Origin: a virus
Lineage: Duplodnaviria; Heunggongvirae; Uroviricota; Caudoviricetes
DNA: 44,644 nucleotides
IMG/VR virus record: IMGVR_UViG_2568526230_000009
Reading direction: 5' to 3' (one strand)
The position numbers were made by a program, and so were the translations under genes. This document shows, one piece after another, positions 37,896-42,328 of the stretch; position 1 is the stretch's first letter, and each line of letters begins with the position of its first letter. The notes beneath the pieces were generated by a model. That model was not told where the DNA came from. It did no database searches and worked only from the letters and a program-made list of their open reading frames with translations.

Positions 37896-38738
37896 ACCCA
37901 GCGGCAGTTGTTCAGAAACACGTTCTGACAGCCGGAAAGACGGCACCAAATTTTGCGCGTCGGCGCCAACACGGTGACAGAGGGAAAGACTTCACCGGCA
38001 TATGGCACATGTGTCGAAGCGGTCTGGATGGAAGCGGAGCCTTAACGCGTTGTCTCCATAGCAGGTAGCCGGAATGTGCAAGCCACAGCCAGGTATGAGC
38101 GATTGATTCACCATCAAGGCGATACGGTGTGACCACCAGGGAAGAGTCCTGGCTACAACACGAGAGCGCACTTCATCGACTCAACTTTGAGCTTTGTCGT
38201 TAAATTTTGAAATGGCGGAGTGCGCTCCCGGTTGTGGTGAACAGGTGTTTAACGGGAACTCCCTGCCCGTTACCCGGTTCGATTCCGGGCGCCCATCATC
38301 AATTTGCTGTGTTTAGTCTTTGCCCAGTCCGCACGATGGGCCATTTTTTCACACAGCCAGGTTTTATCGCTGTGCCTGAGTCCCCAACAGGAGAGGCCAA
38401 ACCCGCAGCGTGACACCAGGGAAAGACCGGAGGAAGTACCACGCCTGACCAGCGTTGACCATGAGCCTGACCAGCTCAAAACAGGAAAGACCAGCCCGGG
38501 CCTGACCAGCCCTGTACGGTCGTAATGGAAACATAACGACGCCGGAAACGTAACCGGCACCCTTTAGATAGCAAAAGACCCGCACAAGGCGGGCCAGTTA
38601 CCCCGAACGGCGACCAAACCATTCGGATTTATCACAAGTGACCAAACTTGTGATGAGGAAAGACCAACGACACTGACGCTATGGAAGCTGATCAATATTC
38701 GCTGATCGGCTCTGAGTATACATTACCAAGGAGTCGCT

Positions 38739-39059
38739 ATGGAAGCGCGCACCATCCCAGTAACACTCTTTATTCATTATGCAACTTCAACTTTCAGCCA
38801 CGAAAAGCTGCTTGTTGCGACTGTTGATATGTCAAAAAATTTTCCAGACAGGTACATCCTTCTGGAAAGCCGCGAAATTGAAATTACCGTTAACCAGCCC
38901 GAGCCAATCGACATCATCGGTTTACAGGTCGAGCAACTGCGTGAACAAAAACAGAAAACAGTCGCCGACGCCCAACAGCGTATTGCTGCTATCGATGACA
39001 AAATCCAGCAGTTACTTTGCATCGAATACACGCCAGATACCGATGAGCTCCCCTACTAA
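38739..39059 (+). CDS. Hypothetical early protein
   Basis: 106 aa; AAGGAG SD 7 nt upstream. Confidence 0.4.
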   Translation: MEARTIPVTLFIHYATSTFSHEKLLVATVDMSKNFPDRYILLESREIEITVNQPEPIDIIGLQVEQLREQKQKTVADAQQRIAAIDDKIQQLLCIEYTPDTDELPY

Positions 39060-39089
39060 AAACCACTGACCTGTAATGAGGAAAGACCA

Positions 39090-41306
39090 ATGACCATTTT
39101 TAACGGCTTGTTAGAAGCGAAAAAAGGCGCGCTCAAAAACGGCGCGATCCCGGCGCTGGCCATCGCCATCGCCGCCCCTAACAAAAAAGTTGCCGAGAAC
39201 ATCATCATCGGCAAATTGTGGGAAGCCTACCCTGACCACGGCGACAACTATTTCAAACCTAAAATCTGGGAAGATGCCCCGGGCCAACCGCGCCCAGGCG
39301 TCGGTGAGTTTGATGAGACGTTTGCCACAGAACACAGTTTTGATGGCGAAAAATGGGTAGTTAACACTCCTGTTGATTCAGATTGCAGTTCAGCAGATAT
39401 CTCACAGGTTAGCGACCTGATGAAACTGCCGGCTCGTGAACGATTCGCCGCCGTTCTGCTGTTCAGCCACGACGCCAACGAAGTCGACAGTGAATTGCTT
39501 GTGCAGACGCGTGAATACCTGGAGATGCTCGATAACAGTGATACTGACAGTGAGGATGAGGTTGACGCGTTTAACCGCATCGTTCTTGATGCCATGGTGG
39601 CGTGTAAGCCCATCGAGTACATGCATATTGCTGGATTGAATAATCTGGTACATGCAATTTTGGCAAGTTGCGATACCCAGGAACAAAACCCGACCAGTTG
39701 GACTATCTCCAAATTTATAAAAAAATGGGTAGAGAATCCCGGTAAACGAGATGAAATGCTGCCGGAGGTAAAACCAGAAACAGCATCCGCACGTCCTTAC
39801 AAACAGACTCACGCCACTCTGGATCGTGAAATTGCCTGCGCCCTGTTACCTGTTGCCCCGGAAAAAATCACCCCCAGCATCCTGAAAGCGGCAGACGAAA
39901 TAATCAGTCAGGACAGGGAAGATTTTAAACGCTGGTCAATGGCCTTGCGCACAACGGATCAGATCCTTGCCTATGACCGCGCATCAGTATTCGGTGTTAT
40001 TCAGAGCGCCCCCGCAAAAGACACGTACCACTTCCCACAATCCCTGCGCAGTCACATCGACAACTGGCTGCAAGCTAACGGGCAGCGTGATGCAAATGCT
40101 GTTGAAGAGAAGCCAAAGGAAGCAGCACCCAAGGATGATGTAAAAGTCACCAACCACGGCGGCGGACGATTCTCAATTGATGGGATGATGTCAGAAACAC
40201 CCTCAAATCAGGGCGAAAAAAGCGAAGCTGCAAATGCTGGAGAACGTAGTTTGCAGCAGTTGCGTGAGCAGTTTGTCACGCCTCGCCATGTGTATGACGT
40301 ACCTGAAAATAACGCCGTATCACAGAGGGAACCTGCAGCTATTACCCTGGCAGAAGAGACTCCTCCACAAGAACAACTTAGCGAGCAGGTAAAGGATCTG
40401 GTGCAGAACGTTGACGCGCTGGTTGAGCGGATCCATGCCGAAGAGCACAAGCGGCAGAATGCAATCTCAGCTATCGAAACGGAGTTAAAGGACTCAGATG
40501 ACACGGATAACCTGGCATTGTGGAAGAACGTATTCAAAACCGATGAGCGCTTCACCAGTGCTTTCTCTCAGAATGGCGGCGGCACATCCATCAACGGCAC
40601 TTATATAGCGATGAAAGCGACTCGCGAATTTGGGCCATTTGGTATTGGCTGGGGGGTAGAGGTGCTGGAGGAGCGCTTTGATAAAGGCGCACCAATAGTT
40701 CGCAAAAAACAGGTTGGTGAAAAAATAGAATGGGATCTGATTCAAGACGGTGTTGGCGGGTACCTATGTGAAATGCACCACACCATGAAAGTGAGAGTCT
40801 GGTACATATTGAATGGGGTACGCGGTGAGTCCGAGGCTTACGGATGCACACCTTATATCTACGACACTAAATACGGACCAACAAGCGACGGCGAAGCACC
40901 GAAGAAATCCTGGACGGATGCTGTTAAGAAAGCGCTATCCCCTCTCGGATTCAGCGCCGATATTTTCATGGGCCTGTACGACAATCCGGAATACCGCCAG
41001 AGGAATAAAGCTGAGTTTGATATCAAGAATGCCAGCGAGAATGCGGAAGATGCTACCCGTCTGCGTAAGGAACTGGATGAGAAGCTTATCAACGTTGCCA
41101 ATACGCTGGCCGCCGCGGTAACCGCCAACGAAGTAAACAAGGTATTTGGCCTCATCGCCCGCGAAGTGGATGTACACAGGAAAGCAGCGGAAACCAAAGG
41201 CGATAAAGAATATTCATCGTATCTGGGATCACGTCTGCGCCGTATCACCGACATTAAAACTGAACGCCTCGCCGCCCTTACCGCTGCACAGGAGCAAACA
41301 GCATGA
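39090..41306 (+). CDS. Large protein with C-terminal Rad52-family single-strand annealing domain
   Basis: 738 aa; TREFGPFGIGWGVEV and KKSWTDAVKKALSPLGFSADIFMGLYDNPEY resemble Rad52 motifs as recalled; N-terminal ~500 aa acidic and unassigned. Confidence 0.5.
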   Translation: MTIFNGLLEAKKGALKNGAIPALAIAIAAPNKKVAENIIIGKLWEAYPDHGDNYFKPKIWEDAPGQPRPGVGEFDETFATEHSFDGEKWVVNTPVDSDCSSADISQVSDLMKLPARERFAAVLLFSHDANEVDSELLVQTREYLEMLDNSDTDSEDEVDAFNRIVLDAMVACKPIEYMHIAGLNNLVHAILASCDTQEQNPTSWTISKFIKKWVENPGKRDEMLPEVKPETASARPYKQTHATLDREIACALLPVAPEKITPSILKAADEIISQDREDFKRWSMALRTTDQILAYDRASVFGVIQSAPAKDTYHFPQSLRSHIDNWLQANGQRDANAVEEKPKEAAPKDDVKVTNHGGGRFSIDGMMSETPSNQGEKSEAANAGERSLQQLREQFVTPRHVYDVPENNAVSQREPAAITLAEETPPQEQLSEQVKDLVQNVDALVERIHAEEHKRQNAISAIETELKDSDDTDNLALWKNVFKTDERFTSAFSQNGGGTSINGTYIAMKATREFGPFGIGWGVEVLEERFDKGAPIVRKKQVGEKIEWDLIQDGVGGYLCEMHHTMKVRVWYILNGVRGESEAYGCTPYIYDTKYGPTSDGEAPKKSWTDAVKKALSPLGFSADIFMGLYDNPEYRQRNKAEFDIKNASENAEDATRLRKELDEKLINVANTLAAAVTANEVNKVFGLIAREVDVHRKAAETKGDKEYSSYLGSRLRRITDIKTERLAALTAAQEQTA

Positions 41307-41872
41307 GCACTGCTATCGCTATTGCAAAAGAATATGCCAGTCTGATTGACCTGTTAGAAACCGCCGATGAACTGACGCCAGAGATGATCGCCGACACGCT
41401 TGAAGGCATGGAAGGAGAACTGGGAGACAAACTGGACGCCATGATGGTCATCTGCCGTAATTTACAGGGCAATGCCAATACCTGCGCTGAAGAAATGTCT
41501 CGCCTGGCAACCCGTAAGACGTCCTTTGAAGGCAAGGAAAAAGCAATTCGAAAGCATATGCTCACCTGCCTGCAAGCTGCTGGCCTGGATAAACTGAAAA
41601 CCGCAAAAAACACATTTACTGATGCACAGGGGGCTATCCGGGTAATTATCGATAGCAAAGATAAGATCCCGGATGAGTATGAGGGCGTGTCACTTGTTGA
41701 TGTAGAAACGGTTATTACACCAAACAAGCGAGCCATTAAAGAAGTGATTGAATCTGCGGAGGCGGTTGCCGCCGAAATACTGGCGCGTGGAGAAACACCA
41801 CCAGCCGAGTTATTAAACCCGGTACCAGGCGCACATCTGGAACGCGGCGAACGGTCACTGAGGATACGCTAA
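41303..41872 (+). CDS. Recombination-associated protein (Gp157-like, putative)
   Basis: 189 aa, coupled to the SSAP gene. Confidence 0.35.
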   Translation: MSTAIAIAKEYASLIDLLETADELTPEMIADTLEGMEGELGDKLDAMMVICRNLQGNANTCAEEMSRLATRKTSFEGKEKAIRKHMLTCLQAAGLDKLKTAKNTFTDAQGAIRVIIDSKDKIPDEYEGVSLVDVETVITPNKRAIKEVIESAEAVAAEILARGETPPAELLNPVPGAHLERGERSLRIR

Positions 41873-42054
41873 TGCTTAAACTCACATTAAAGCGTGGTGA
41901 CGCGGTTCACCTGGTACTTGCCGATGGTACCAATGGCATTATTGAAGCACGGAGCCGCTGCGAACTTGGGCTACACCTGCCAGAAAACATTAAGGTCACT
42001 CGGGAGAAATCGGCATTCACCCCACAAGAACTGATTACGCCTAATCAGAAATAA
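41872..42054 (+). CDS. Small protein with weak CsrA-like pattern
   Basis: 60 aa; MLKLTLKRGD...GLHLPENIKVTREK compared with CsrA from memory. Confidence 0.25.
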   Translation: MLKLTLKRGDAVHLVLADGTNGIIEARSRCELGLHLPENIKVTREKSAFTPQELITPNQK

Positions 42055-42103
42055 AAACTCACCATCGCTAGCATTGCGATTCACCAGACACCGGAGGATC
42101 ACA

Positions 42104-42328
42104 ATGCTGCGATGGCAACCGGGAGCAACTCTGCTCTCCGCATTTGATATCAAAATTGGTCGACTGTCGGCCAGCGTCAGGAAACAGACTTTGACCGAGT
42201 CTGATATTGCCCGTGCCTGCCAGAAGGCAGATGACGCAATAAGCTACATAATGAGGAAAGACCATGAAAAGCGATCACGACATAATCACCAGAGAAGAAA
42301 TGGTCGAGCTGACGGGAAGCCCACTTAA
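42104..42328 (+). CDS. Hypothetical protein (start moved to ATG)
   Basis: Track start 42074 is TTG; ATG at 42104 has GGAGG 6 nt upstream. Confidence 0.3.
   Translation: MLRWQPGATLLSAFDIKIGRLSASVRKQTLTESDIARACQKADDAISYIMRKDHEKRSRHNHQRRNGRADGKPT

Follow-up and report, generated by a model that had tools for sequence, protein, structure and literature searches.

The P22 sar RNA and the IS10 RNA-OUT are short RNAs encoded on the opposite strand over a translation-initiation region, and both carry a stem-loop terminator. The minus-strand RNA that we predict here in an Escherichia coli prophage resembles them in these respects and in the predicted block of ribosome binding. However, while sar and RNA-OUT have a single target lying opposite, the target of the predicted RNA recurs at four further start sites distributed over two divergent operons, which would imply action in trans. 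The P4 CI RNA (seqB with seqA and seqC) and the C4 RNA of P1 and P7 (with a1 and b1) are likewise related in design, in that a conserved stretch pairs with repeated targets in an early leader and lytic functions are shut down. These RNAs are processed from a leader of the same sense and act in one operon through premature termination or blocked coupling, whereas the predicted RNA is encoded antisense, comes with a -10 box and a terminator of its own, and would have Shine-Dalgarno/AUG regions as its targets. With trans-acting enterobacterial small RNAs such as GcvB and the prophage-encoded DicF it shares a short, conserved single-stranded seed, stem-loops and a U-tailed Rho-independent terminator, with ribosome-binding sites of several mRNAs as putative targets. 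DicF and GcvB recognize loosely similar sites in host mRNAs; here, in contrast, the targets would be the phage's own genes with a near-identical site of 11-12 nt.

Protein-based systems also offer points of comparison. CsrA and its decoys CsrB/CsrC combine GGA at ribosome-binding sites with an untranslated RNA holding many loop copies, a layout that recurs at this locus. The conserved unit here is, however, 8-12 nt long, in place of GGA within an A(N)GGA context, and a 60-aa protein encoded in the region stays below the CsrA family thresholds. The lambda nut site (boxA-boxB, with boxB loops GAAAA and GAAGA) is paralleled by sense-strand hairpins with GC stems and a purine-rich GAAAGA loop in an early leader near a terminator. 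In contrast to nut, these occur in many copies with no recognizable N and no canonical boxA, and the sequence doubles, in unstructured form, as Shine-Dalgarno sequence and spacer.

Results

Start-site motif

The DNA analyzed (the window; 44,644 nt) is an E. coli prophage located at tRNA-Leu, which is carried by 488 of 5426 complete genomes (~9%); ST131 is among the E. coli lineages with this prophage family. An earlier note on this DNA had described a triple repeat, ATGAGGAAAGACCA, and we found it exactly three times in the window, at 38653-38666, 39076-39089 and 42251-42264 on the plus strand. As the note had also observed, two copies directly precede starts: the second ends one base 5' of the ATG at 39090, and the third shares its last A with the ATG at 42264. 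When up to two mismatches were allowed, ATGAGGAAAGACCA matched six times against 0.31 expected, a number reached in none of 100 shuffles. The repeat is larger than first noted, since its core, GAGGAAAGACC, is present in five exact copies in the window. Four of these adjoin start codons on the coding strand, at 39090 and 42264 (plus strand) and, through further copies at 36413-36423 and 33993-34003, at 36411 and 33991 (minus strand), so that both operons are represented. The 8-mer GGAAAGAC occurs 11 times in the window; in 10 cases it is on the sense strand of the early transcripts.

GAGG lies 7-8 nt 5' of the ATG at 39090, 42264, 36411 and 33991, whereas the copy at 38653 is followed by ACG. 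The second motif copy forms the Shine-Dalgarno sequence and spacer of a 738-aa exonuclease-like gene (39090-41306, plus strand), which is the first cistron of the coupled recombination block hyp738-Gp157-hyp60. The third does the same for xis (DUF4224, 42264-42527, plus strand), which overlaps int in the excision block; this copy also codes for M-R-K-D near the 3' end of an unannotated open reading frame (42104-42328). On the minus strand, GAGGAAAGACCG (36412-36423) adjoins the ATG of the 74-aa gene hyp74, whose stop codon overlaps the start of an O-like replication initiator, with a helicase gene next in this replication block, and GAGGAAAGACCA (33992-34003) adjoins the ATG of the 136-aa gene hyp136, which opens a coupled block of four small genes. 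GAGGAAAGACC(A) supplies the Shine-Dalgarno sequence and the spacer in a standard cassette that heads four translationally coupled early gene blocks.

At orthologous junctions the spacer AAAGACC does not vary, even though the flanking phage proteins are only 40-70% identical. Relatives with proteins of 40-80% identity carry 7-10 sense-strand copies of the motif per 10 kb at the same junctions, and across relatives the copy number tracks the leader/RNA element and not the 60-aa protein. In a comparison with phage BUCT709, the non-coding stretch 38330-38740 was more conserved than the coding sequence downstream. A second module, TGACC[AT]G, was found at most 45 nt upstream of the motif in 61% of contexts against a background of 1.3%. 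Other genes of the same operons have different, equally good Shine-Dalgarno sequences. Most loci were gathered with patterns containing parts of the element, and the apparent conservation is inflated by this; the loci found via the 60-aa protein, which are free of this collection bias, agree with it. The suggestion of reused translation-initiation cassettes is supported, and these cassettes are under much tighter constraint than a plain Shine-Dalgarno sequence.

The first motif copy (38653-38666, plus strand), followed by ACG and not ATG, is an orphan in this respect. In most relatives an ATG and a short open reading frame follow it, yet in at least three lineages it is kept exact without an ATG. 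It is conserved with no ATG after it in the window and in the L019, L026, L004 and L050 groups, and it is also kept where a 1-nt deletion breaks the small open reading frame. It looks like no start site; it appears to lie opposite a candidate minus-strand small RNA gene, with its minus strand as the template of the seed UUGGUCUUUCCUC. A second repeat, CGCTATGGAAGC, is present twice as reported, at coordinates shifted one base to the right from those given earlier (38677-38688 and 38735-38746, plus strand). Taken alone it is borderline unusual, as two matches appeared in 2 of 100 shuffles. Its first copy is inside a ~25-nt insertion found in some lineages only, while the second spans the start of the 106-aa gene (38739-39059), from its spacer through the start codon into the first codons.

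Early leader

A promoter scan placed a pL-like promoter (TTGACC-17-TAAAGT) together with operator-like repeats at 37821-37875 on the plus strand; the repeat family of this region (D1) also occurs between cI and cro. From this promoter an untranslated leader of ~850 nt extends to 38738, and the orphan copy is inside it. Three hairpins with a GAAAGA loop (class H) are found on the plus strand at 37931-37944 (preceded by CTGACA), 37980-37993 (with a stem G.U that forms on the sense strand only) and 38416-38430 (preceded by GTGACA). These hairpins fold on the sense strand, have covarying stems and carry a conserved UGACA flank. A further copy, CAGGAAAGACCA (38482-38493, plus strand), is not in a hairpin and is complementary to the seed over 13 nt (1 G.U).

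Three CUGACCA-loop hairpins with differing stems (family D5; 38441-38512, plus strand) are also present: ACGC/GCGU at 38441-38455, GAGC/GCUC at 38463-38477 and GGGC/GCCC at 38498-38512. Hairpins with the same loop precede the motif of the 74-aa gene (36433-36453) and that of the 136-aa gene (34012-34028) on the minus strand. An intrinsic-terminator-like hairpin with a T run is located in the leader at 38327-38351 (plus strand), and its stem covaries among relatives.

Predicted small RNA

Opposite the orphan copy, folding, covariation, a covariance model and a conserved -10 box delineate a predicted small RNA gene on the minus strand (38566-38720). We infer a transcription start near 38707, and the predicted RNA of ~115-140 nt would run to ~38570. 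From 5' to 3' it comprises a 5' hairpin, the stretch UUUCCUC, exposed, within the seed UUGGUCUUUCCUC (template 38655-38668), the hairpins H3 (38654-38631) and H2 (38626-38603), both with the loop UUGGUC, and the terminator hairpin H1 (38595-38577) with a U tract to ~38570. The single-sequence fold had an energy of -57.9 kcal/mol (z -6.6), RNAalifold reported 12 compensatory pairs, and the covariance model scored 125.7 bits at 38566-38673. Among 30 distinct sequences, both partners differ in 17 of the 26 pairs, a level that none of 500 shuffles reached.

The strand was assigned from G.U pairs. In the alignment the minus strand was 95.4% paired with 97 G.U cells, and the plus strand 83.4% paired with 4; because of this bias we assign the RNA structure to the minus strand, with the reservation that alignment A6 was itself fitted to the minus-strand model. 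The leader hairpins, used as a control for this call, were biased the opposite way (32 sense G.U against 8). H1 with its U tract works as a terminator on the minus strand only (e.g. AGCCCAC-UCAG-GUGGGCU followed by UUUUUU); the tract is UUUU in the window and 6-8 U in relatives, and the stem covaries. The -10 box (38720-38715) reads TATACT in 31 of the 42 distinct variants and TATAAT in the other 11, 26-34 nt upstream of the seed. This hexamer was part of the pattern with which the variants were collected, but it is also present in sequences found independently of it, and it is retained in spite of a deletion that shifts the frame of the small open reading frame overlapping it. The -35 region is poor, and a consensus promoter scan made no call at the site.

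An Rfam scan of 37600-42600 gave no match at the gathering score, and at E values up to 5 there were only chance-level matches (Trp_leader, 19 bits; RprA, 37 bits against a cut-off of 70). We found no paper with a matching description of this RNA. An RNA of the P1 C4/P4 CI type was rejected, as the folding strand of the RNA is not that of the leader but the opposite one, and the site does not match RF01695 or RF03163. A separate C4/isrK element does occur in the same prophage at 32184-32381, where it matches both of these families. A type I toxin-antitoxin system of the hok/sok type was rejected as well: the 106-aa protein encoded downstream cannot be classed as a short hydrophobic peptide, and the upstream open reading frame is missing in several lineages. 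The geometry of an antisense element over an upstream open reading frame exists in many relatives. Even without any action in trans, the structured and covarying RNA would represent a new candidate family absent from Rfam.

Complementarity to start sites

The seed UUGGUCUUUCCUC is invariant across 42 distinct variants from 126 loci, a conservation that is partly built in, since GGTCTTTCC was required when these loci were gathered. UUUCCUC is predicted to be unpaired between two hairpins in all 42 variants, whereas the UUGGUC part of the seed is predicted to be paired inside the 5' hairpin, which counts against the antisense reading discussed below. An antisense transcript is trivially complementary to its own opposite strand, so the case for action in trans rests on the sequence being repeated elsewhere. 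The complementarity spans 19 contiguous nt (1 G.U) at the 39090 start of hyp738, 17 nt (1 G.U) at the 33991 start of hyp136, 15 nt (2 G.U) at the 36411 start of hyp74, and 14 nt at the xis start. These four rank at the top of all matches of the RNA on both strands of the 44.6-kb window. No compensatory change in trans is observable, the seed and the start-site core both being invariant, and in the single lineage where the start site facing a related element differs, that site has no second copy. The minus strand of CGCTATGGAAGC adds 12 nt of complementarity at 38735 (plus strand) and 36933 (minus strand), and in lineages with the insertion this would give the predicted RNA a second stretch matching the starts of hyp106 and of the cII-like YdaT gene.

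Discussion

The reading that we favor, at roughly even confidence, is that an antisense small RNA, presumed to be expressed from the minus strand, silences the cassette-headed blocks in trans through their shared start-site sequence. It draws directly on the statistics and conservation of the motif, on the RNA structure with its folding strand and terminator, and on the complementarity; that the RNA is transcribed and works in trans is inferred, as are the direction of the regulation and its role in the phage. According to this reading, the RNA would pair with each cassette gene from the Shine-Dalgarno sequence across the spacer to the AUG and so keep ribosomes from binding at the first cistron; translational coupling would then extend the silencing to the whole block. 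A single RNA could in this way silence replication, recombination and excision genes together, while cI, cro, the cII-like protein and int, which have other start sites, would escape. The target copies in hairpin loops of the pL leader could receive or titrate the RNA. We consider it quite doubtful that the system amounts to an RNA-only threshold switch for induction and lysogeny, in which the RNA would be constitutive or activator-dependent, the leader with its 3-7 loop copies would serve as a sponge, and early translation would begin only when transcription of the leader outruns the RNA.

Some of the same observations may be accounted for without a regulator in trans. An optimized cassette (hairpin, GAGGA, and an A-rich unstructured spacer) could have been copied between junctions and kept for high translation, with the orphan as the decayed start of a small open reading frame and the minus-strand structure as only a cis-antisense RNA or an antisense terminator. 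Four copies are indeed correctly spaced before start codons, the orphan has an ATG and a short open reading frame in most relatives, the pairing of the motif with TGACC[AT]G (61% against 1.3%) is what duplication as a unit would give, and module exchange is visible in this region in mosaic relatives. We nevertheless regard this explanation as rather unlikely: the spacer is invariant where neighboring proteins are only 40-50% identical, the orphan stays exact without an ATG in at least three lineages and despite the deletion that breaks its reading frame, genes of the same operons manage with different Shine-Dalgarno sequences, and the target sequence in covarying leader hairpin loops is left unexplained. 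The conservation of the orphan without a start codon is likewise unexplained by the earlier idea that the repeats serve as recombination linkers, which survives as a possible route for the spread of the cassette. As for the shared translational regulator proposed at the same time, the invariant spacer does fit post-transcriptional regulation, but the evidence points to an antisense small RNA instead of a protein.

The protein proposed for a binding check was the 60-aa product of 41872-42054 (plus strand; phrog_2482, a small five-strand beta protein), and its description as CsrA-like is not supported: the match to PF02599, weak though collinear and its sole Pfam hit, reached 13.1 bits where the cut-off is 27 (E 0.097), hhalign gave a probability of 3% for CsrA, and a PDB profile search at E values up to 10 retrieved no CsrA. 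It is improbable, in our view, that GGAAAGACC is the operator of an RNA-binding protein, single-stranded at starts and in leader loops and bound by the 60-aa protein, another early product or host CsrA, comparable to T4 RegA or to CsrA with its decoy CsrB. Consistent with such an operator are the GGA within the motif, preceded by A at start sites, the several leader copies in sense hairpin loops with covarying stems and a UGACA flank, and the place of the 60-aa protein among the best conserved early proteins (62-100% identity). The sense fold of the leader hairpins and their conserved flank are indeed something that the small RNA model does not explain. They would suit a nut-like antitermination system, in which UGACA and a GC stem with a GAAAGA loop correspond to boxA-boxB, an N-like factor causes read-through of the 38327-38351 terminator, and the start-site copies are coincidental. 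The GAAAGA loop is similar to those of lambda boxB, and the covarying leader terminator is flanked on both sides by such sense-strand hairpins. We hold this to be very unlikely, given that the early proteins scanned include no N-like protein, that there are 3-7 copies per leader and not one, that the start-site copies are unable to form the hairpin and yet are the best conserved, and that the minus-strand RNA would be unaccounted for.

Should the antisense reading be true, a common Enterobacteriaceae prophage family would coordinate replication, recombination and excision post-transcriptionally with one antisense RNA and one start-site sequence, which departs from the protein-centered lambda paradigm and from the known single-target phage antisense RNAs. 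It would constitute a compact natural case of co-regulation by standardized ribosome-binding sites, and would offer a direct way to act on prophage induction in lineages of clinical importance.

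Motif copies at the start sites of both early operons

The window combines a lambda-like head with a P2-like contractile tail and belongs to an E. coli prophage integrated at tRNA-Leu, adjoining pgsA. Its early-left operon (plus strand) comprises a cI-like repressor (37336-37728), approximately 1 kb without an annotated gene, and then, with hypothetical genes named by product length in amino acids, hyp106 (38739-39059), the 738-aa exonuclease-like hyp738 (39090-41306), Gp157 (41303-41872), hyp60 (41872-42054) and xis (42264-42527), with int next. An ORF of 74 codons at 42104-42328 (plus strand), which lacks a RefSeq annotation, is a real gene: it matches phrog_27062 (E 1e-32), starts behind a strong Shine-Dalgarno sequence (GGAGGA), and overlaps the xis start with its 3' end, where M-R-K-D is encoded across the third motif copy. 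The early-right operon (minus strand) contains cro, the cII-like YdaT, hyp74, an O-like initiator, a helicase, and hyp136 onward.

The 14-mer reported in the earlier note is exact at all three of its positions (38653-38666, 39076-39089 and 42251-42264, plus strand), and the window holds six matches with at most two mismatches against 0.31 expected. The two copies said to abut start codons do so (39090 and 42264, plus strand), and the core GAGGAAAGACC, with five exact occurrences, adds the starts at 36411 and 33991 (minus strand); all four are on the coding strand. We counted 11 occurrences of GGAAAGAC in the window, 10 of which lie in the sense orientation of the early transcripts. A second repeat, CGCTATGGAAGC, is likewise present twice, with its positions corrected from 38676 and 38734 to 38677 and 38735. 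We collected more than 120 related loci of common gene order from IMG/VR. The view of the motif as a reused translation-initiation cassette exceeding ordinary Shine-Dalgarno sequences holds among them, since loci with early proteins that are only 40-80% identical retain 7-10 sense copies in the left operon and two in the right.

The copies fall into two classes. Class T, GA-GGAAAGACC-A(A)TG, directly precedes start codons, and TGACC[AT]G is found within 45 nt upstream in 61% of 152 distinct class-T contexts (background 1.3%); at the right-operon sites this upstream element folds into a hairpin with the loop CUGACCA. Class H consists of leader copies, in which a GAAAGA loop sits on a covarying GC stem that is usually preceded by UGACA. 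By gene coordinates, class-T sites lead four blocks, hyp738-Gp157-hyp60, xis-int, hyp74-O-helicase, and hyp136 with three small genes, and the overlapping genes behind each site are presumably translationally coupled. A different start-site class, AGGAGNCNNTATGGAW (AGGAG-N-C-NN-T-ATGGA-W), is common to cro (37216, minus), YdaT (36927, minus) and hyp106 (38739, plus), so that regulatory genes and delayed functional blocks use two different standardised ribosome-binding cassettes.

The leader and the orphan copy

A promoter-like site at 37847-37875, together with operator-like repeats common to the leader and the cI-cro region, points to a pL-like promoter approximately 850 nt upstream of hyp106. 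Compared with phage BUCT709, the window shows clearly higher conservation across 38330-38740 than in the coding sequence downstream. We considered whether the leader encodes protein, but 1-2-nt indels disrupt its ORFs from one relative to another, which shows that it is non-coding; its CCTGACCAGC repeats were rejected as coding repeats as well, their 22- and 35-nt spacing being out of frame. The motif copy at 38653-38666 is an orphan, without a start codon behind it. In many relatives an ATG and a short ORF directly follow this copy; in the window and at least two other lineages the ATG is missing and the motif is still exact.

Mid-leader, an intrinsic-terminator-like hairpin with a T run (38327-38351, plus strand), whose stem covaries among relatives, is nested within a second inverted repeat (CTGTGT at 38306, ACACAG at 38353). 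This hairpin implies that expression of the early-left operon depends on read-through or antitermination. Further upstream, a tRNA-like fragment at 38217-38297 (plus strand) contains the T-arm/acceptor-like CCCGGTTCGATTCCGGGCGCCCA and weakly matches tRNA-Sec (19 bits) and RprA (37 bits); BUCT709 and many relatives lack it, so it may have been left behind by an attachment site or a tRNA gene. A 12-nt inverted repeat, CGAGAGCGCACT / AGTGCGCTCCCG (38161-38172 and 38219-38230, plus strand; 46 nt between the arms), is kept in BUCT709-type relatives.

A predicted minus-strand RNA opposite the orphan copy

Directly 5' of the orphan copy in the plus-strand sense lie three hairpins, H1-H3. In a covariance-model alignment of 30 distinct sequences, 95.4% of cells are paired and 17 of the 26 pairs are changed on both sides. 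None of 500 shuffles matched these figures, and pairing fell to 45-53% when the partners were slid. The structured RNA is evidently the minus strand, given that 97 G.U cells were counted when folding this strand and four for the plus strand (95.4% versus 83.4% paired), with 41 versus 1 in an independent MAFFT alignment. The class-H leader hairpins served as internal control and displayed the opposite bias (sense G.U 32 versus 8).

This predicted small RNA would run from ~38707 to ~38570. Only on the minus strand does H1, followed by U4-8, make a good intrinsic terminator, and every variant has a -10-like box (TATACT or TATAAT) 26-34 nt upstream of the seed, the stretch opposite the orphan copy; the box is kept even in lineages whose overlapping small ORF is disrupted by a 1-nt deletion, and the -35 region is weak. 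The transcript predicted for the window folds at -57.9 kcal/mol (z = -6.6). In 42 of 42 variants a 5' hairpin is predicted in which GAUCAG pairs with UUGGUC, leaving UUUCCUC single-stranded before H3. UUGGUC is also the loop of both H3 and H2. The YUNR loop motif is common in antisense RNAs, and we take the UUGG in these loops to fit it.

Rfam returned nothing for this region, either at gathering score or at permissive E-values, and a literature search by sequence strings and topic found no paper matching the element. The prophage sRNA svsR was dismissed as a match, since both its prophage, at icd, and its locus are different ones. Elsewhere in the window, at 32184-32381 (minus strand) and upstream of an ORF6N/antirepressor-like gene, Rfam gave gathering-score matches to C4 antisense RNA (75 bits), the a1/b1 targets of C4 (53 bits) and isrK (80 bits). 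The prophage thus also has a P1-type RNA immunity element.

Complementarity to the start sites

The invariant stretch UUGGUCUUUCCUC of the predicted RNA is the reverse complement of the motif. A duplex-energy ranking with a 37-nt query proved too noisy, because random GC-rich sites gave similar energies, and it was replaced by contiguous complementarity. With G.U allowed, pairing to hyp738 extends over 19 nt, covering the Shine-Dalgarno sequence, spacer, AUG and two further bases, followed by hyp136 (17 nt), hyp74 (15 nt), xis (14 nt) and the leader copy at 38483 (13 nt). These five matches rank at the top of all those on either strand of the 44.6-kb window. Among them fall three chance runs of 15-18 nt that are rich in G.U, and two of these runs equal the xis and hyp74 sites in score. 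The 38677 copy of the second repeat lies within a ~25-nt insertion present in some lineages; its minus-strand sequence, GCUUCCAUAGCG, has 12-nt complementarity to the hyp106 and YdaT starts. Both repeats are thus inside the same predicted RNA.

Relatives and distribution

A search of 5426 complete E. coli genomes found the 4.3-kb region of interest in 488, with many ST131 genomes among them. In a comparison with 11 E. coli genomes, the match to 38300-42600 was interrupted in many ST131 genomes by an IS3-family insertion (IS150 or ISEc52). The species scan, run genome-wide, turned up three true matches and otherwise only chance ones, and within the collections searched the element is restricted to Enterobacteriaceae prophages. 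In the GenBank phage collection the module occurs only in BUCT708 and BUCT709 (OM816835, our locus L002, and OM816834), the sole isolated phages carrying it, which were deposited as Stenotrophomonas phages. Since all other relatives found are Enterobacteriaceae, this host assignment looks doubtful.

One lineage (loci L103-L106, extended by L169 and L179) is sRNA-less or variant: the start site facing its weakly related element is a different one, GAGGACAAAACA. We looked here for a compensatory change in trans, and GAGGACAAAACA was not repeated in the pR operon. Loci L103-L106 have a different leader, with a related hairpin whose loop is UUUGGU (L104 3870-4040, minus strand; also L103, L105 and L106). 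The L103-L106 element, antisense directly upstream of the exonuclease-like gene (start site GAGGACAAAACAATG), also has the terminator GCCCGC-UUCG-GUGGGC followed by UUUU, and may be a divergent, purely cis-antisense version. Three further loci (L108, L122 and L146) were discarded as natural knock-outs, being truncated or mosaic.

Proposed role of the predicted RNA

On the reading with the most support, the start sites share a cassette that is recognised by an antisense-encoded small RNA; we infer the transcription of this RNA, its action in trans and its biological role. Three features fall outside this model: the conserved flank UGACA, the terminator within the leader (38327-38351) and the weakness of the -35 region. 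The target sequence is displayed by the class-H leader loops as well, and these may receive the predicted RNA or titrate it. Through the class-T sites, this RNA would silence the four coupled gene blocks, with cI, cro, cII and int spared. Such silencing would suit a role in establishing or maintaining lysogeny, for instance if it let Int be made while Xis is withheld.
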